A stretch of 64,000 nt of DNA, from positions 1 to 64,000 of the forward strand of contig JBEKHN010000009.1 in assembly GCA_050012255.1 (NCBI GenBank), written 5' to 3'. Below, in pieces: positions 21,706-33,422 of the stretch. This DNA comes from Candidatus Bathyarchaeia archaeon. Its GTDB lineage: Archaea > Thermoproteota > Bathyarchaeia > Bathyarchaeales > Bathycorpusculaceae. The notes below the pieces were generated by a model. The model searched no databases. It was given only the letters and a program-made list of their open reading frames with translations, and was not told the DNA's origin. Both the position numbers and the translations under genes were made by a program. How positions within the stretch are numbered: position 1 is the stretch's first letter; each line of letters opens with the position of its first letter.

Positions 21706-22899
21706 TCATTCAAGTTGGTAAGGTTTGAATTGCCATGCTTCTTCCTGTTGGTAAAGATCTCTAAGTATTCCATTGGCTTGTTCTCTGTCAATTGACAATA
21801 GCAGTTTTGCGAGGTGCTTGCAGAGTTTTTTTGTTGACGAGACTCGTTCCCAGTCTGCACAGTCATGAAGGATGATCTTTGCTCTTCCGTCTATCACTAT
21901 GTGATATTCTCTCAATCTTGCTTCAAGCCTTTCACTTACCTGCTTGGTAATCGTCAGGTCGCTGTCCGGGATCTCTTCAGCTCTCTTCAGCCTTTCAGGG
22001 GGAACGAAGTAGTTTATAAGACTGTCAAAATTCATGTTCTTGGGTGCAGCAAAGGTTTCAAGAGTGGAATAAGTCGTCTGAGTTGCAGCTTTGCGGTAGC
22101 TTTCTATCCTGTTTTTGATTTCGATTTGCTTTGGCTCTAGAGCTCCAGCCATTTCCATTATTTGCAGACAGTTCTCAACTGCGTAGCCATGATAATGGTT
22201 GTTGAAGTAACCGTAGACTTTTTCGACTTTGTCGGCAACTTCTTGAACTCTGGGAGCCCAGGGCTCAAGTTCTTCGGCGCGATAGCGATAGTTGTACCAT
22301 GGTCTGGTTCCGTGTCCGTGCCACCGGAAGTAGGCGATCTGAGATGTCAAGTGTGTCTCTGGAGGTAAAAGTGGTTCATCGACGATTGTGTATGCTACCT
22401 TGTATTTCTCGAGGAGGGCCCATGTTTCGCTTCGCATCCATGAGAGGTCTCGGAACTCGACTGCGAATTTCACGTGGGTCGGGAGCAATTTGAAGAAGTC
22501 TTCCAGCTGCTTTGGCCTGTAGTCAAACCTTGGAGGGAGTTGGATAAGTATGCAGCCTAGTTTGCCGCTTAGGGAGAGTGGTTCCATTAGTTCTAAGAAT
22601 CTCCCTAGATCTTCCTCAATGCCTCGTGCAAGCTCTAGTTTCTTCTCGTGTGTGATTAGGCCGGGCAGTTTGGCTGTGTAGACGAAGCCCTCGGGTGAGT
22701 ATCTGGTCCAGCCCATGACGGTGCCTTTTGAAGGATAGCGGTAGAATGTGGAGTCGATCTCAACGGTCTTGAAGACTCTTGTGTAGGCGCGGAGCATGCT
22801 CTTGTCCATTTTGGTGTAGAAAGGGCCTATCCATTCCTTGTAGCTCCATCCGGACGTGCCCAGGAAGACTTTTTTGGAGATCTCAGCCAAGCTGATCAC
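21706..22899 (-). CDS. DUF72 protein with C-terminal SWIM-like zinc finger
   Basis: GTSGW, VEIDSTFY, QLPP, VEFR, YFNN; tail HDCADW..LCKH. Confidence 0.88.
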   Translation of the reverse strand: MISLAEISKKVFLGTSGWSYKEWIGPFYTKMDKSMLRAYTRVFKTVEIDSTFYRYPSKGTVMGWTRYSPEGFVYTAKLPGLITHEKKLELARGIEEDLGRFLELMEPLSLSGKLGCILIQLPPRFDYRPKQLEDFFKLLPTHVKFAVEFRDLSWMRSETWALLEKYKVAYTIVDEPLLPPETHLTSQIAYFRWHGHGTRPWYNYRYRAEELEPWAPRVQEVADKVEKVYGYFNNHYHGYAVENCLQIMEMAGALEPKQIEIKNRIESYRKAATQTTYSTLETFAAPKNMNFDSLINYFVPPERLKRAEEIPDSDLTITKQVSERLEARLREYHIVIDGRAKIILHDCADWERVSSTKKLCKHLAKLLLSIDREQANGILRDLYQQEEAWQFKPYQLE

Positions 22900-23849
22900 C
22901 AGGTGATATGTTCTAGTTTGTCCATTACTTCAGCGATGTTGTTGTATGTTTCTTCAGGAAGTTCTTGGAGGGCTTCCTCTGCGTGGACTCTTGCCGTTTC
23001 TGTCATGTCGAAGAGTTTCCATCCTTGCTTGCGGATAAGCTGTTGTTTCGTGGCAGGAAATTCCGCGTCTTCTCTGAGAACCTCTTCAAGGGAAGATATA
23101 CCCGTTGACCTCGTTATCATCGGAAACTTGCCCGTCTGCTTATACTTCTTCAACCTTACAGCGTCTTTGTACATTCTTACAAAATGAAAGCTCATGGCTA
23201 CTTTCTGGGACTTTGACCCGGAGGCCCTCCGATCTATTTCGACCAGTTCTCCATCCGTTGACTGGTAAATGTTGTGTTGCCCCTTTCCGAAGAGTCTGGT
23301 GTACAATAGGTCTGACCCGTAAGCGGGTTCCTCGCCTTTCGACAAATCCACACAGTGTACCATGTTCTTGTCTTGCATGATCTTCAAGAGTTCCGGTGAG
23401 AGCACTTGACCAGGTGCTTGTCTCAGTTCGAGGGCCACTCGCATGTTCCCAAGGTCCAGTGAGGACAGGAGGAGACGAAGGTCTTTAACTGATGCTCGAT
23501 TCAGCCTGAATGATCGCGGAACCTGAAGGTGCAGGATATTCGCTTTTAGAACCTGACATATCTTTCTCATTTTTTCAAGAGTTTCAATGGCCTGTTCTAC
23601 GGGTTGGAACTTGTAGGTGTGGCAAATTGAGCGATGCGCTCTGACGCTGAATTGAAAATCTGGCGGCACCAGCCTTCTCCACTTTTCCACTTCATTCAAG
23701 GGAGGTTTCTGGTAGAATGTCGAGTTTACTTCCACAAAGTTGAAAACCTTAGAATACGCTGCTAAGGAGCTGACTCCTGGAACTTGAAAATAAGCCCATC
23801 CACCGGCTCCGATTAGGTATTCCTTCAAGACTTCAGGCCTCTTCGTCAA
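22896..23849 (-). CDS. Divergent DUF72 protein with DUF2795-like tail
   Basis: GAGGW, VEVNSTFY, YTRLFG; tail EFPATKQQLI..LQELP..TY. Confidence 0.82.
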   Translation of the reverse strand: MTKRPEVLKEYLIGAGGWAYFQVPGVSSLAAYSKVFNFVEVNSTFYQKPPLNEVEKWRRLVPPDFQFSVRAHRSICHTYKFQPVEQAIETLEKMRKICQVLKANILHLQVPRSFRLNRASVKDLRLLLSSLDLGNMRVALELRQAPGQVLSPELLKIMQDKNMVHCVDLSKGEEPAYGSDLLYTRLFGKGQHNIYQSTDGELVEIDRRASGSKSQKVAMSFHFVRMYKDAVRLKKYKQTGKFPMITRSTGISSLEEVLREDAEFPATKQQLIRKQGWKLFDMTETARVHAEEALQELPEETYNNIAEVMDKLEHITW

Positions 23850-26250: not shown

Positions 26251-27681
26251 ATGAAGTTTTCTTTCATTGCTCCTGGCCCCAACGCAGATTTGGATGAACG
26301 TGAGGGAAAAAAGTCTATCGGCGCCTGGCCTCCTCTGGGCATCTTGTATTTGGCCGCGGTCTTAGAAGAGAGAGGCGTTGAGGTTTCTGTTCTGGACCAG
26401 GCAGCAGAAGGTTTCACGCTGAAGGAAACGATTAGCTGGGTAAAGGCTGAGAACCCTGACATTCTTGGTTTTTCAACTTTTGCAAGCTCAGGCCGCACGG
26501 CCGCGGCGATAAGCAGCGAGGTTAAGAAGGAGAATCCGAACGTTATTGTAGTGTTCGGGAATCATTACGCGACGTTTAATCCCGAAAGAATTCTGAGAAA
26601 ATATCCTTCAGTTGACATCATTGTGCGAGGAGAAGCAGAACGTACAGTCATCGACCTAGTGGATTGGTTCGAGAAAAGGCGAACGCTTAAAGAAATTCTT
26701 GGAATCAGTTTCAGGAACGGAAGCGAAGTGGTATCGATGGCTGATAGGCCTTTGATAGAGGACTTGGATTGTCTTCCTTTTCCTGACCGTGCCTTAATCA
26801 GTGAGGACTATCACTCTATGATTGCAGGAGCAAATGTTGCCCCAAGAAAGTTCACAAGCATCGTTTCTTCCCGCGGCTGCTTTTACAGATGCCGGTTCTG
26901 TTCCTGTGCGCAGTTTGCTCGTAACAGATGGAGATCCAGATCCGTGAAGAGCACTTTGGAAGAACTGTGTTTTCTTGCGTCCGAAGGATATAGACAGTTC
27001 GTCTTTGTTGACGACAATTTCACCGCTAACCCAAACAATGTGATCAAGCTTTGCAGAGGAATGAGAAGAGAAAAGCTGGATGTCGAATGGATCTGTGAGG
27101 GAAGAGTGAGTAACGCTTCCTACCAGATGTTCTGGGAGATTGCGAGAGCGGGGTGTAAAATCTTGTACTTTGGCATCGAGAGCGCTAATCAAAGAATTCT
27201 CGATTACTACGACAAGCGGATAACGCCTGAACAATCTAAGACCGCGGTGAGAACGGCCAGAAAGGCGGGAGCAGACGTGATAGTCGGGTCTTTCATAGTG
27301 GGCGCGCCTGACGAGACCAGAGAGGAGATTCAGAACACGATCGAGTTTGCAAACAGAATTGCAATAGACCTGCCACAGTTTAACATAGTGGGCGTTTTTC
27401 CTGGAACAGACATGTGGAACGAACTCGAAACCAGGGGGTTTCTAACGGACGGAGACCACTGGGAGACAGGCATCGCGGTCTCAGAAATATGCCCGACTGC
27501 AGTCCCTTACGAGGAAATAAGGCAAATGGTACATGAGGGTTTTTACCGCTTTGTCAAAAGGCCAAGCTTCATATCAAAACAGATCGCGAGGCTAATCAGG
27601 AGTCCTTACCGGGTCAGAAGTCTGATAAACAATCTTGAACAAATGGGCAGTATTAGAGAAGGCATCCGCAGCGTTACTTGA
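26251..27681 (+). CDS. B12-binding radical SAM protein
   Basis: PPLGILYLAA, RGEAE, SRGCFYRCRFC, DDNF and GIES motifs. Confidence 0.93.
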   Translation: MKFSFIAPGPNADLDEREGKKSIGAWPPLGILYLAAVLEERGVEVSVLDQAAEGFTLKETISWVKAENPDILGFSTFASSGRTAAAISSEVKKENPNVIVVFGNHYATFNPERILRKYPSVDIIVRGEAERTVIDLVDWFEKRRTLKEILGISFRNGSEVVSMADRPLIEDLDCLPFPDRALISEDYHSMIAGANVAPRKFTSIVSSRGCFYRCRFCSCAQFARNRWRSRSVKSTLEELCFLASEGYRQFVFVDDNFTANPNNVIKLCRGMRREKLDVEWICEGRVSNASYQMFWEIARAGCKILYFGIESANQRILDYYDKRITPEQSKTAVRTARKAGADVIVGSFIVGAPDETREEIQNTIEFANRIAIDLPQFNIVGVFPGTDMWNELETRGFLTDGDHWETGIAVSEICPTAVPYEEIRQMVHEGFYRFVKRPSFISKQIARLIRSPYRVRSLINNLEQMGSIREGIRSVT

Positions 27682-29641: not shown

Positions 29642-30925
29642 CTATTTCTTATGCAACTTCTGCGCCGCGATGAACGTCAATCCGTGTTTGGTCAGGGTCT
29701 CAGCCGTCCTGTTTAGTGCATCGTGTTTGTCAAGGTAATTTATGAGAAACTCTGGCATCAAACCCTTGTCGATGATGTCCTTCTTTGGCATGAAGTAGTC
29801 GAGTGTGTCTGAAGCATGATCCCTTTTTCTTTCTGTCTCAGGTATTCCGCCCTCATGTTTGGCGCTGATGTTCTTCACGTGGTCAGCAAGCCTCACAAGC
29901 TCAGCAGTTCGGTCGTACGGCTGTCTTACGATGCTCTTGTAGGCTTCGGTGATGTGATGTTCAAGGCGAACAACGTCTTCAAAATCGAAAGCATTCCGGA
30001 CGTAAGCCGCTAGTTCGATGGTTTTGTTATCAACAGAGTTTGAGAGGTTGAAACCGATAAGCGGACTTGAGCCATCATCGCGGCTGAAGAGTTTGGCGGT
30101 CATCAGCGTCCAGAGGATCGAGTAGGGGTTATCAATTCCTAAGAAGACTGAAATCTTAAATTCGATGTTGATTCCCAGCTTGTGCAGCCAGTACCCCAGA
30201 AGGACGGTGCCCGAATTTGTGTTCAACACTTGTGGAAGACCGTATTCGGTGTAGTAATGCAGAAACTCATCGACCCATTTCAGCGAATACTCGTTCGGGA
30301 CACCCACTCCCCCGAAATAGCCAGTAATTGTCTCTGGGCCAGCCAGGTGAACGTTGATCGGCTTGCCATCTGGCCCAGGCAGTGTGCCTTTCGTGTCAAG
30401 CGTTTGAACATATGATGCGCCGATGATCTGCATCGCCGCTGCGAAAGCCAGCATGTCATCGTCCTCGATTTGTTCCTTCATTGAACGCACACGGACGTAC
30501 CGCGCTGGCATGAGCTCCTGTTTTGCAATCGCCTTCTGCGCTTCTTCAACGAGCCATGGGAAGAAGTTGAACGCGCTAATCTCCAGAGTGACTGCCAGGG
30601 ACTCGTCAAACTTCATTGAATCCGCCTTCTTCCCCAGAACTTTCTTCCTGTATTCTGAAACGCTGATGAAAGCTTCTTTGTCCCGTTGTTTAGTCAACCA
30701 TTCAAGGTCTTTAACAAACGGAGATTCGCTCTTTCTCAGCCTGTCCATGAGCTTGTCGATCTTGCGTGCCTCTTCGGCTTTGTGGTTGATTTGGTCAACC
30801 CCGCCGTACTTGTCGACGATCTCCAGCAGGCCATTCACAAGCTGGTTGTCCTTTCTCAGCAGAAAATCGTTGATTTCCTTCAGGTTTTCTTCATGAATTT
30901 TCAGCCTGTCCCTTAGGCTAGCCAA
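29642..30925 (-). CDS. Hypothetical soluble enzyme-like protein
   Basis: 427-aa ORF with enzyme-like motifs (TLDTKGT, GPETITGYFGG, EHH, KHEGG); family not assigned. Confidence 0.85.
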   Translation of the reverse strand: MASLRDRLKIHEENLKEINDFLLRKDNQLVNGLLEIVDKYGGVDQINHKAEEARKIDKLMDRLRKSESPFVKDLEWLTKQRDKEAFISVSEYRKKVLGKKADSMKFDESLAVTLEISAFNFFPWLVEEAQKAIAKQELMPARYVRVRSMKEQIEDDDMLAFAAAMQIIGASYVQTLDTKGTLPGPDGKPINVHLAGPETITGYFGGVGVPNEYSLKWVDEFLHYYTEYGLPQVLNTNSGTVLLGYWLHKLGINIEFKISVFLGIDNPYSILWTLMTAKLFSRDDGSSPLIGFNLSNSVDNKTIELAAYVRNAFDFEDVVRLEHHITEAYKSIVRQPYDRTAELVRLADHVKNISAKHEGGIPETERKRDHASDTLDYFMPKKDIIDKGLMPEFLINYLDKHDALNRTAETLTKHGLTFIAAQKLHKK

Positions 30926-31134: not shown

Positions 31135-32613
31135 ATGTTCAAGCCTGAAGGGATTTTTCCAGCTTTGGTCACGCCCTTTACAGATGATGGAAAAGCCGTT
31201 GACGAAGAGAGACTTCGGACTCTGGTTAACCACTGCCTCAAACTAGGGGTCCACGGCGTCGTTCCATGCGGGACGACCGGCGAATTCGTAAACTTGACAA
31301 CTGAGGAGAAAAGGCGCGTGATCAAAATTGTGATCGACGAAGTTAACGGGCGAGTTCCAGTAATTGCGGGAACAGGTTCCAGTGGAACCGACCAGACTGT
31401 GGAAATGACAAGATATGCGAAGGATGCTGGCGCAACCGCCGCCTTGATCGTCACTCCTTTCTACCTGAAGCCAGCCGACCGCGGAATCTACGAGCACTAC
31501 TACACGATAGCGAACGAAGTGGACATGCCGATAATTCTGTACAACATTCCCCAGTGCACAGGGCTGGATTTGCCCTGGCAAATGGTTGAAGACTTGGCCC
31601 AAATACCAAACATTGTCGGCGTAAAGGACAGTAGTGGGCAGCTCAAGTTCATACTGGCTGTTCTTGAGAAGGTGAGAGACAAGATTAACGTTCTTTGCGG
31701 GCACGACGAAGTCGTCGTGGCAGGGTTGGCTGCTGGCTGTTCTGGCGCGATACTGGCAAGCGCCAACGTGATTCCCGACATCTGGGTTCAAATCTATGAT
31801 CACGTCAAGAAAGGCGAGCTTCAACAGGCACGCGAGCTGCAGTACAAGGTTCAGAAGATAGCGAGAATCATTGCTGGTAGCGGAGCCGTAGGCACGAAAG
31901 AGGCTCTCAACATGATGAAAGTCAAGGTCGGCCCGGTAAGAAAACCCCTTAGCGTAGGTGGAGAACTGACCTATGAGGCAAGAGAAGAACTGCGTCTCGA
32001 TTTGGAGAAGATAGGAAAGATAAAGCCCAAGGCCATCGCCTTCGAGATAGCCGAGAAACCTATCGAAGAACGTTTTACTGCAATCGACCTGACACCAGAA
32101 ATGATCAAGAGATTCAAGCTGCGTGTAGGTGAAGCCTTGGCTGGACAGGGCTCAGATGTGGCGCACATCGACCTTCTAATCGGCGAGAAAGATGGACCGG
32201 TTGCCGCCGCGTTCGCGAAGGCCAAGGCCACGCCAGCTTCTGGCCACGAGCCGTTACTGGCCATCTTGGAACCCAACCTGTCAGTGAAACCCGTAACCCT
32301 GATCGTCCCAACGGTCACGATAACCAGCATGCGCCAGGCAAGCATGGTTTACGGACCGGCCCAAGCAGCGGTGGCCAAAGCCGTGGTTGACAGTGTTGCA
32401 GACGGGACGATCCCAAGAGAAGCCACCGATGACCTCATAATAGTCGCGAACGTGTTCGTCCACCCGACAGCAGTCGACAGGCAACGAGTCTACATAAACA
32501 ATTACAAGGCGATGCGACATGCTATCCGCAAGACGATGGAAGGCAGGCCAGACGTGGACGAACTCATAGAGAACAAGGATCGGTCGAAGCACCCGTTTAA
32601 GTACACACCATAG
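31135..32613 (+). CDS. DapA-family aldolase fused to a formaldehyde-activating enzyme (Fae) domain
   Basis: GTTGE, YNIP, GVKDSS; C-terminal GEAL.G.G..VAHIDL.IG, GH..LLA, GPAQAAVAKAV, VFVHP, KHPF. Confidence 0.92.
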   Translation: MFKPEGIFPALVTPFTDDGKAVDEERLRTLVNHCLKLGVHGVVPCGTTGEFVNLTTEEKRRVIKIVIDEVNGRVPVIAGTGSSGTDQTVEMTRYAKDAGATAALIVTPFYLKPADRGIYEHYYTIANEVDMPIILYNIPQCTGLDLPWQMVEDLAQIPNIVGVKDSSGQLKFILAVLEKVRDKINVLCGHDEVVVAGLAAGCSGAILASANVIPDIWVQIYDHVKKGELQQARELQYKVQKIARIIAGSGAVGTKEALNMMKVKVGPVRKPLSVGGELTYEAREELRLDLEKIGKIKPKAIAFEIAEKPIEERFTAIDLTPEMIKRFKLRVGEALAGQGSDVAHIDLLIGEKDGPVAAAFAKAKATPASGHEPLLAILEPNLSVKPVTLIVPTVTITSMRQASMVYGPAQAAVAKAVVDSVADGTIPREATDDLIIVANVFVHPTAVDRQRVYINNYKAMRHAIRKTMEGRPDVDELIENKDRSKHPFKYTP

Positions 32614-33422
32614 TGAAGGAATTGGCAAGTCAAGTAATAACCGAAGGTGACCTCGTACTTCTCAGCCTCAGTCAGAGGAAAACCTACCTAGTCAGAGTTG
32701 AGCAAGGCAAGAGCTTTCACACGCACAAGGGTTTTGTCAGATTCGATGACCTGATAGGAAAAGATTTCGGTTCCACAATCCTGAGCAGCCTGGGGTTTGA
32801 ATTCGCAGCCTTGAAGCCTCTGCTGCGCGATTTCATTATGAAGTCAGCGAGGCAAACGCAGATAATGTATCCAAAGGACATAGCCCTGATAGTTATGTTC
32901 AGCGGCTTAGGCCCAGGAAGCAGGGTCGTTGAGGCCGGAACAGGGACCGGTGCAATGACAACGGCCTTAGCACATTATGTGAGGCCCAACGGAAGAGTGT
33001 ACAGCTACGAGATAAGGGAAGAATTTCAAAAGACAGCCAAGAAAAATCTGGAAAGAGCGGGTCTAATTGATTTCGTGGAACTGAAAAACAAAGACGTTAC
33101 CGCTGGAATAGACGAGAAAGACATTGATACGGTAATCCTGGACTTAGCGGTTCCTTGGCTAGTCGTCCCTCATTCATTTACGGCCTTGAGGTCCAGCGGG
33201 ACAATAGTGACGTTCAGCCCAACGATAGACCAGGTCGTCAAGACTGTTGAAGCATTGAATGAAAATGGCTTCACCGACATTGAAACGGTCGAGTGTCTGA
33301 TGAGAGGCATGCAGATAGAAAGGGGAAAGACTCGACCGCAGACTCTGATGACAGCCCATTCTGGCTACATCACAACTGCTCGCAAAGCCACGAAGAACAT
33401 CGCTTCCATCAGCCCTTCATAG
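32613..33422 (+). CDS. trmI: tRNA (adenine-N1)-methyltransferase
   Basis: THKG, QIMYPKD, VVEAGTGTG, LDL..PW and HSGY motifs. Confidence 0.93.
   Translation: MKELASQVITEGDLVLLSLSQRKTYLVRVEQGKSFHTHKGFVRFDDLIGKDFGSTILSSLGFEFAALKPLLRDFIMKSARQTQIMYPKDIALIVMFSGLGPGSRVVEAGTGTGAMTTALAHYVRPNGRVYSYEIREEFQKTAKKNLERAGLIDFVELKNKDVTAGIDEKDIDTVILDLAVPWLVVPHSFTALRSSGTIVTFSPTIDQVVKTVEALNENGFTDIETVECLMRGMQIERGKTRPQTLMTAHSGYITTARKATKNIASISPS

Follow-up and report, generated by a model that had tools for sequence, protein, structure and literature searches.

What is the function of a protein that joins an aldolase of the dihydrodipicolinate synthase (DHDPS) type to a complete formaldehyde-activating enzyme (Fae)? 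The question is raised by a gene at positions 31135..32613 (+) of a 64,000-nucleotide stretch of DNA from a Candidatus Bathyarchaeia archaeon (assembly GCA_050012255.1, contig JBEKHN010000009.1, positions 1 to 64,000), which is referred to below as the window. Fae interconverts free formaldehyde plus tetrahydromethanopterin (H4MPT) and methylene-H4MPT, and 4-hydroxy-2-oxobutanoate (HOB), the product of pyruvate and formaldehyde, is the 2-oxo acid of homoserine. Judging from sequence, we consider it probable that the fusion is an aldolase acting on pyruvate and formaldehyde (a HOB aldolase) and that its tethered Fae domain exchanges the C1 unit with H4MPT, with the reaction running in either direction.

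Domain architecture and predicted structure

The gene is a single intact reading frame of 492 codons, running from ATG to TAG with 0 internal stops, and its three parts, a DHDPS-like aldolase, a linker, and Fae, all lie on the plus strand. Residues 4 to 291 (31144..32007) form a class I aldolase domain of the DHDPS/NAL superfamily with a TIM barrel, as indicated by a full-length match to PF00701 (E 2.3e-80, profile positions 2 to 287 of 289) and by AlphaFold2 and Foldseek. The interdomain linker, residues 292 to 330 (32008..32124), has no Pfam match and is followed by a complete Fae domain, residues 331 to 488 (32125..32598), which matches PF08714 at profile positions 1 to 158 of 159 (E 3.8e-62; 209.4 bits, cut-off 27). 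The original prediction, made from the DNA letters of the window, had placed a full Fae domain in frame from about position 32120, and the match begins at base 32125. The fusion passes the NCBIfam models for both parts, i.e., dapA (TIGR00674; 247.7 bits, cut-off 206.15) and fae (TIGR03126; 222.9 bits, cut-off 118.05). The Fae part shows overall conservation relative to M. extorquens Fae (1y5y), with an E value of 2e-37.

AlphaFold2 was used to model the fusion on the basis of 54 fusion sequences. The model has a mean predicted local distance difference test (pLDDT) value of 84.4, with values mostly above 90 for the TIM barrel and around 80 for Fae. The linker of approximately 35 residues is disordered, its pLDDT values being below 50 at residues 301 to 312 and 322 to 327; the domains are thus connected via a disordered linker, and the notion of formaldehyde channelling contained in the original prediction finds no support. 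In a Foldseek search, the barrel corresponded to DHDPS structures with a TM score of 0.95, and YagE (2v8z) was among the fold matches; only DHDPS-type chains were retrieved, a result by which substrate specificities cannot be distinguished. The PDB entries for Fae contain five chains each (1y5y and 1y60, 2 entries with 10 chains), versus four for the DHDPS entry 2yxg, and the fusion joins both proteins on one polypeptide.

The catalytic core is retained and the DapA arginine is lost

The Schiff-base aldolase motifs named in the original prediction (GTTGE, Tyr, and KDSS) are all present as written. GTTGE comprises residues 46 to 50 (31270..31284), the motif YNIPQCTG with the retained Tyr136 comprises residues 136 to 143 (31540..31563), and the Schiff-base lysine, Lys164, is encoded at 31624..31626 within VKDSSG (residues 163 to 168), where it aligns with the lysine of DHDPS. 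The best PDB sequence matches of the aldolase domain are all DHDPS, with M. jannaschii DHDPS (2yxg) at E 2e-55, and its identity to DHDPS structures such as 2yxg and 1dhp is 33 to 38%. In this alignment, YNVPSRT of 2yxg faces YNIPQCT, so that the arginine of DapA is replaced by Cys141 in the fusion, as had been read from the DNA. This arginine corresponds to R138 of E. coli DapA, the residue that binds aspartate semialdehyde (ASA).

The replacement is systematic. Among 55 distinct fusion sequences, the position equivalent to R138 is occupied by Cys in 29, Ala in 9, Val in 7, Leu in 5, Thr in 4, and Tyr in 1, and by Arg in 0, whereas the catalytic residues are kept nearly throughout (K164 in 53, Y136 in 54, T47 in 52, and T48 in 53 of the 55). 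The proposal of an intact core lacking the ASA-binding arginine hence holds for the family and not only for the gene in the window. Arginine is also absent from this position in 74 of 126 unfused nearest relatives. Replacement of the arginine by a small residue suggests an aldolase built for a small uncharged aldehyde.

The DapA arginine is also lacking in other class I aldolases that depend on pyruvate, namely, YagE/YjhH, the 2-keto-3-deoxygluconate (KDG) aldolases, and NanA; unlike the aldehyde proposed for the fusion, their aldehydes are C2 to C6 sugars, and none of them is fused to Fae. The fusion scored far below the cut-off on each of the NanA, KDG-aldolase, and HpaI models. RhmA, to which we return below, represents an aldolase class different from the DHDPS family.

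The fusion stands outside the diaminopimelate pathway

Databases name the protein 4-hydroxy-tetrahydrodipicolinate synthase, i.e., DapA. Neither dapB nor lysA was found in the source genome (2.35 Mb, 98.54% complete), and a search for a Semialdhyde_dhC domain of any kind yielded none there, while the control search was positive in 14/14 reference genomes. Since the source genome lacks both dapB and an Asd-type enzyme, it supplies neither the next enzyme of the diaminopimelate (DAP) pathway nor the cosubstrate ASA. On a broader scale, a survey of the class based on 301 sampled species genomes revealed dapB in 77 of them, yet among the 86 that carry the fusion it occurs in only 3 (G163, G259, and G299; counted by hand).

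Relatives possess a separate, canonical DapA, encoded in a dapA-dapB-asd operon in G038 and in a dapA-dapB-aspartate-kinase operon in G163, the latter genome containing both this enzyme and the fusion. The canonical enzymes show the motifs YIIPGRTG (G038) and YVIPGRTG (G163) as well as VKEATG and are 27 to 30% identical to the aldolase domain of the window gene. On TIGR00674, canonical DapA of G163 reaches 230.3 bits, which is below the 247.7 bits of the fusion; the model therefore does not discriminate between the two, and the database name of the fusion is thereby explained. Overall, the fusion resembles DapA in fold, overall identity, Schiff-base Lys, Tyr/Thr, and GTTGE, but differs by Cys in place of Arg138, KDSS in place of KEAT, the C-terminal Fae domain, and a genome without DAP pathway or ASA supply. 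The fusion is outside any DAP pathway, in line with the earlier view that it is no ordinary DHDPS.

Two candidates that bear on the missing DAP genes were rejected. A DapB_N match (PF01113, 33 bits) in a 350-aa open reading frame (ORF) was not accepted as DapB, as a Sulfolobus control also matches; and the α-aminoadipate (AAA)/LysW route of lysine synthesis was dismissed as the reason for the absence, lysW not being found in the source genome. The source genome also encodes a stand-alone DHDPS paralog of 301 aa (G000:C4:82104-82964; L004:1462-2364, minus strand) with the motifs YNVPKFTG and VKDSSG, thus likewise without the arginine. It is 42% identical to the aldolase domain of the fusion, passes the dapA model at 226 bits, and adjoins the gene for a 343-aa FAD/NAD-type oxidoreductase-like ORF.

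Distribution and phylogeny

All 120 closest matches listed for the protein share the two-domain layout, with lengths of 492 to 502 aa, 86 to 100% identity, and both Pfam domains; their named sources are mostly Bathyarchaeia/Bathyarchaeota, and their label is again 4-hydroxy-tetrahydrodipicolinate synthase. An exhaustive library clustered at 50% identity contains approximately 13 further clusters of full-length fusions, down to 36% identity, with source names from Lokiarchaeota/Promethearchaeota, Thorarchaeota, and Korarchaeota/Thermoproteota and with one Anaerolineae metagenome-assembled genome. A layout common to the 120 homologues and these clusters excludes misassembly or chance fusion. In the 301 class genomes, counting the fusion at E <= 1e-140, we found it in 86, full-length in 83 and clipped by contig ends in 3; 8 further genomes with fragments or a pseudogene only were kept out of this number. 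The fusion is thus widespread in the class and in other archaeal groups and not a one-off. In a FastTree phylogeny of aldolase domains, comprising the 55 distinct fusions, 125 unfused nearest representatives, and the paralog of the source genome, the 55 fusions formed one clade (support 0.81), which otherwise contained only 4 fusion fragments and 1 aberrant sequence. The fusion is real, old, and widespread.

Two forms can be distinguished. The complete A form, to which the window gene belongs, retains a full, high-scoring Fae domain in at least three archaeal phyla, down to approximately 44% identity. In the B form, the Fae-like domain ends early (profile positions 1 to 139 of 159, 36 to 141 bits); the histidine of the AH.DL motif is gone from most B copies, and in two divergent clusters the Schiff-base lysine is gone as well. 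Tandem pairs of an A and a B form occur at L030:7718-10653 (G015), L051:3198-6099 (G057), and L031:1197-4118 (G051). The two forms may constitute a heteromeric pair, or B may be a regulatory or scaffold subunit.

In a peat metatranscriptome, 0.05 of the sampled words were matched, and contigs 85 to 92% alike covered 31152-32480. At this level of similarity the contigs stem from relatives; they are uninformative on expression of the window gene, and carry-over of DNA is possible.

The fusion is complementary to asd and hom

The distribution of the fusion was compared with that of hom (PF00742) and asd (TIGR00978) in the same 301 genomes. hom was present in 26/86 fusion genomes versus 158/215 others, and asd in 27/86 versus 162/215. 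Accordingly, the fusion was found in 14/152 genomes with both genes, in 25/69 with exactly one of them, and in 47/80 with neither (plus 3 with fragments). This complementarity recurs in separate families. Within family f5, the fusion is present in 4/4 genomes of genus g29, where hom and asd occur in 0/4 each, and in 0/7 genomes of genus g30, where hom and asd occur in 7/7 each; in family f4, the fusion is present in 6/6 genomes and hom and asd in 0/6 each; and in families f2 and f12, nearly all genomes contain asd and hom and none contains the fusion. Even two genomes of one genus, g10, differ in this way: asd and hom but no fusion are found in G145, and the fusion but neither gene in G256. 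The fusion-bearing families f16, f17, and f23 have asd/hom in none of their genomes, thrC in 9/9, and thrB in 6/9. Among thrB-positive genomes, the fusion was present in 11/22 (plus 1 fragment) of those without asd and hom, versus 9/109 of those with both.

The link is also positional. Downstream of the fusion in G031, and in the same orientation, lie thrB (homoserine kinase, NF002288, 298 bits) and thrC (threonine synthase, TIGR00260, 376 bits), and in G163 and G265 hom directly adjoins the fusion. In G135 (C8, L042:6560-9193), an intact hom lies between the usual neighbours of the fusion and is followed by a broken fusion, which consists of pieces of 187 and 288 aa with 3 stop codons (2 TGA, 1 TAA); in the congeners G112 and G116, the fusion is intact at the same site and neither hom nor asd is present. 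As the product HOB is the keto acid of homoserine, the pattern of asd, hom, thrB, and thrC lends the proposed chemistry circumstantial support. At L023:9505-9622, the conserved N-terminal motif of G031 thrB lies upstream of the first in-frame ATG, GTG, or TTG, and only an ATC is available there; a rarely used start codon, a frameshift, or faulty assembly would account for this.

C1 and homoserine genes of the source genome

Genes for H4MPT metabolism, which the proposed function presupposes, were found. The source genome encodes Mch (PF02289, 412 bits) and, apart from the fusion, an N-terminally extended Fae-Hps (NF009833, 583.8 bits), whose Fae part shares 51% identity with that of the fusion. 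H4MPT-bound C1 metabolism hence exists in this organism, and the fusion represents the second Fae of the genome. The Hps half is not contained in the fusion, which matches NF009833 only at profile positions 2 to 161 of 392 (184 bits, versus a cut-off of 274). Fae-Hps, the bifunctional H4MPT hydro-lyase/3-hexulose-6-phosphate synthase of methanogens, also tethers Fae to an aldolase-type enzyme with formaldehyde as substrate or product, a role that is proposed in the case of the fusion; it differs from the fusion in that the latter has the reversed order, with Fae at the C terminus, and a class I pyruvate aldolase instead of an Hps of the OMPdecase fold. PanB (ketopantoate hydroxymethyltransferase), which transfers a hydroxymethyl group from a methylene-pterin to C3 of a 2-oxo acid, is a mechanistic analogue of the fusion from an unrelated family. 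A replacement of PanB by the fusion was ruled out, PanB itself being present in the genome at 313 bits.

The threonine synthase of the source genome (G000:C4:26990-28399; L039:5991-7397) is only PRK05638-like (375.8 bits, versus a cut-off of 421) and has a C-terminal PadR-like domain; this lower-scoring type is the sole ThrC in many fusion-bearing genomes of the order. hom is present (NF004912, 420 bits) in a cluster at G000:C1:316972-326621 (L038) together with genes for a GT2 glycosyltransferase, an FrhB-like protein, a polysaccharide pyruvyl transferase, a diaminobutyrate-2-oxoglutarate-transaminase-like enzyme, and two ORFs without assigned family. One may speculate that, in a genome without Asd, this hom could work only from homoserine, and the cluster may represent a branch leading from homoserine via ASA to diaminobutyrate for a surface polymer.

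Proposed function and alternatives

In the mechanism that we propose, the N-terminal domain would act as a class I pyruvate aldolase of DHDPS descent, forming a Schiff base via Lys164, and the exchange of the arginine that holds the ASA carboxylate for a small residue would fit it to a small uncharged aldehyde. The C-terminal Fae domain would exchange free formaldehyde with methylene-H4MPT, giving the net reaction methylene-H4MPT + pyruvate + H2O <-> HOB + H4MPT, and HOB would be converted to homoserine by transamination. We infer here which substrates the enzyme uses, that its two domains are coupled, in which direction it works, and that transamination follows. The role envisaged is a C1-fed supply of HOB and homoserine where the route via aspartate kinase, Asd, and homoserine dehydrogenase has been lost; that the enzyme works biosynthetically and feeds the homoserine node is quite conceivable, although we would not call it probable. 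The chemistry has a precedent in the engineered homoserine cycle of E. coli, in which, according to a review (PMC8879981), promiscuous RhmA forms HOB from pyruvate and formaldehyde, endogenous aminotransferases convert HOB to homoserine, and homoserine kinase and threonine synthase follow. The conversion of pyruvate and formaldehyde to HOB is known to work, and the review calls HOB a non-native metabolite (PMC8879981). The proposed reaction of the fusion and the order fusion-thrB-thrC in G031 mirror this sequence from HOB via homoserine to threonine; unlike the synthetic pathway, in which RhmA uses free formaldehyde, the route via the fusion would be natural and linked to H4MPT.

Several observations weigh against a biosynthetic supply of homoserine by the fusion. 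Neither the source genome nor its fusion-bearing relatives within the order have a GHMP homoserine kinase (thrB); in the source genome, G008, G077, and G124, the PGM-like "proposed homoserine kinase" stays below its cut-off (the paralog of the source genome scores 357 bits versus a cut-off of 446, compared with 524.6 bits for the true enzyme of G090, genus g30, which is encoded next to hom), and metX was not found in these four genomes either. Without homoserine kinase or metX, no consumer of homoserine was identified there except hom. Conversely, in 14 genomes the fusion coexists with asd as well as hom, and 10/22 thrB-positive genomes without asd and hom contain neither the fusion nor a split ortholog; as only paralogs of 31 to 40% identity and Fae-Hps were seen in these 10, a further source of homoserine, of another kind, must exist. 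Most fusion neighbourhoods are unrelated to homoserine (TrmI, a 427-aa protein, peptidase S9, and others), and no aminotransferase is a conserved neighbour. In G031, the gap between the fusion and thrB amounts to 80 to 140 bp and is T-rich, so that cotranscription of the two is not established. As to the counts, related genomes are not independent samples and the numbers were copied by hand from search tables; TIGR00978 was positive in 7/14 control genomes, and other types of Asd may thus have been missed outside the source genome.

Alternatively, the enzyme might run in the catabolic direction, cleaving HOB, derived from homoserine or from dehydrated C4 sugar acids (erythronate, threonate), to pyruvate and formaldehyde. 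The tethered Fae domain would then trap formaldehyde, which is toxic, as methylene-H4MPT that could be oxidized or enter acetogenesis. The direct analogy to Fae-Hps, also present in the source genome, would favour this, and the lack of homoserine kinases in its own lineage makes a biosynthetic need not evident. Further points on this side, which count against biosynthesis, are genes for a UxaA/GarD-type sugar-acid dehydratase and a LarA-like hydroxyacid racemase near the fusion in G129, G195, and G258, a gene for an Ldh_2 2-oxoacid reductase after it in G116, and AOR-family aldehyde:ferredoxin oxidoreductase genes adjacent and divergent in G077, G268, and G051; moreover, surveys of Bathyarchaeia take fae as serving formaldehyde detoxification or use (PMC10321748). 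The dehydratase and racemase genes are, however, confined to one genus and lie on the opposite strand, no source pathway of HOB has been established in nature, and a catabolic role would leave unexplained why the fusion is complementary to asd and hom, why it neighbours thrB-thrC, and why it has decayed where hom sits at its locus. On balance, we regard a catabolic role as rather unlikely.

The two domains might also have little to do with one another, the aldolase using another aldehyde or 2-oxo acid in the manner of KDG aldolases or YagE, and Fae being an independent second Fae or an oligomerization module, without any coupled C1 enzyme. The long disordered linker is compatible with this; the B form, with its shortened Fae domain and lost histidine, suggests that the domain can persist without canonical activity, and residues other than arginine are common in family members that are not DapA, including 74 of the 126 unfused relatives and the paralog with YNVPKFTG. 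Yet the complete Fae domain kept by the A form in at least three archaeal phyla, together with a monophyletic, long-lived clade, argues for selection on the domain pair, and formaldehyde is, to our knowledge, the only aldehyde on which Fae acts; we therefore consider uncoupled domains unlikely. Far less credible still is an ordinary DapA that carries Fae by chance, as the NCBI and JGI names would have it. TIGR00674 is passed and the best sequence and fold matches in the PDB are all DHDPS, but that model is non-discriminating, arginine occurs in 0/55 fusions, the partner genes dapB, lysA, and asd are missing from the source genome and dapB from all but three fusion genomes, and canonical DapA is encoded separately in dap operons, in G163 alongside the fusion.

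Other genes at the fusion loci

In the window, the fusion is followed by a gene for a GCD14/TrmI-type tRNA methyltransferase (32613-33422, plus strand), whose GTG start codon overlaps the stop codon of the fusion by one base. This order of fusion and TrmI gene is found in 16 of 42 loci and suggests that functionally unrelated genes are cotranscribed. Upstream and divergent lies a 427-aa ORF (29642-30925, minus strand), which keeps this position in 13/42 loci (families f1, f4, and f5, all of the order to which the source of the window belongs) at 72 to 96% identity. No Pfam or NCBIfam family and no ESM Atlas match was found for it, and its homologues, at least 8000, are all named hypothetical; its AlphaFold2 model (pLDDT 62) shows alternating β and α elements and has no Foldseek match at E <= 0.001.

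A conserved protein of approximately 316 aa adjoins the fusion in 5/42 loci from three families, with copies at L030:10769-11716 (minus), L025:6294-7253 (minus), L049:4773-5705 (plus), and L051:6204-7160 (minus) and at the contig end of L050. It matches ESM Atlas clusters partly annotated as U32 peptidase (0.99), its 3151 homologues are all named hypothetical, and searches of Pfam, NCBIfam, and the PDB returned nothing for it. As an obligatory partner of the fusion it was ruled out, tblastn finding no copy in the source genome. Elsewhere in the window, two DUF72 genes lie side by side (21706-23849, minus strand), the second of them carrying a DUF2795 tail, and a gene for a B12-binding radical SAM protein was noted as well (26251-27681, plus strand).

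Implications

Our literature search, which covered a limited collection of papers but not the supplementary tables of Bathyarchaeia studies, where it might be listed, found no published description of a Fae-DHDPS fusion; in the accessible parts of papers on Bathyarchaeia or soil (including PMC10321748), fae is mentioned only generically. Thousands of database entries call the fusion 4-hydroxy-tetrahydrodipicolinate synthase or simply Fae, and under such names an unusable lysine step would be attributed to Bathyarchaeia and Asgard archaea in metabolic reconstructions, while a possible link between C1 and C4 metabolism would be missed.

If the proposed function is correct, the fusion would represent the first enzyme in nature devoted to the HOB reaction, which synthetic biologists borrowed from promiscuous aldolases, and a previously unrecognized natural counterpart of a step of the engineered homoserine cycle; it would also offer a ready-made, formaldehyde-shielded catalyst. 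Only tentatively, and with doubts that it will hold in full, do we envisage a natural C1-assimilating route to the C4 skeleton of the aspartate family, in which methylene-H4MPT from the methyl branch of the archaeal Wood-Ljungdahl pathway and pyruvate would yield HOB and then, by transamination, homoserine. In Bathyarchaeia, Asgard archaea, and Korarchaeota living under energy limitation, this route would take the place of aspartate kinase, Asd, and homoserine dehydrogenase. By our own estimate, such a route would save ATP compared with the aspartate route. A fusion with this function would help to explain how abundant subsurface archaea without asd and hom gain or dispose of C4 units of the homoserine type.

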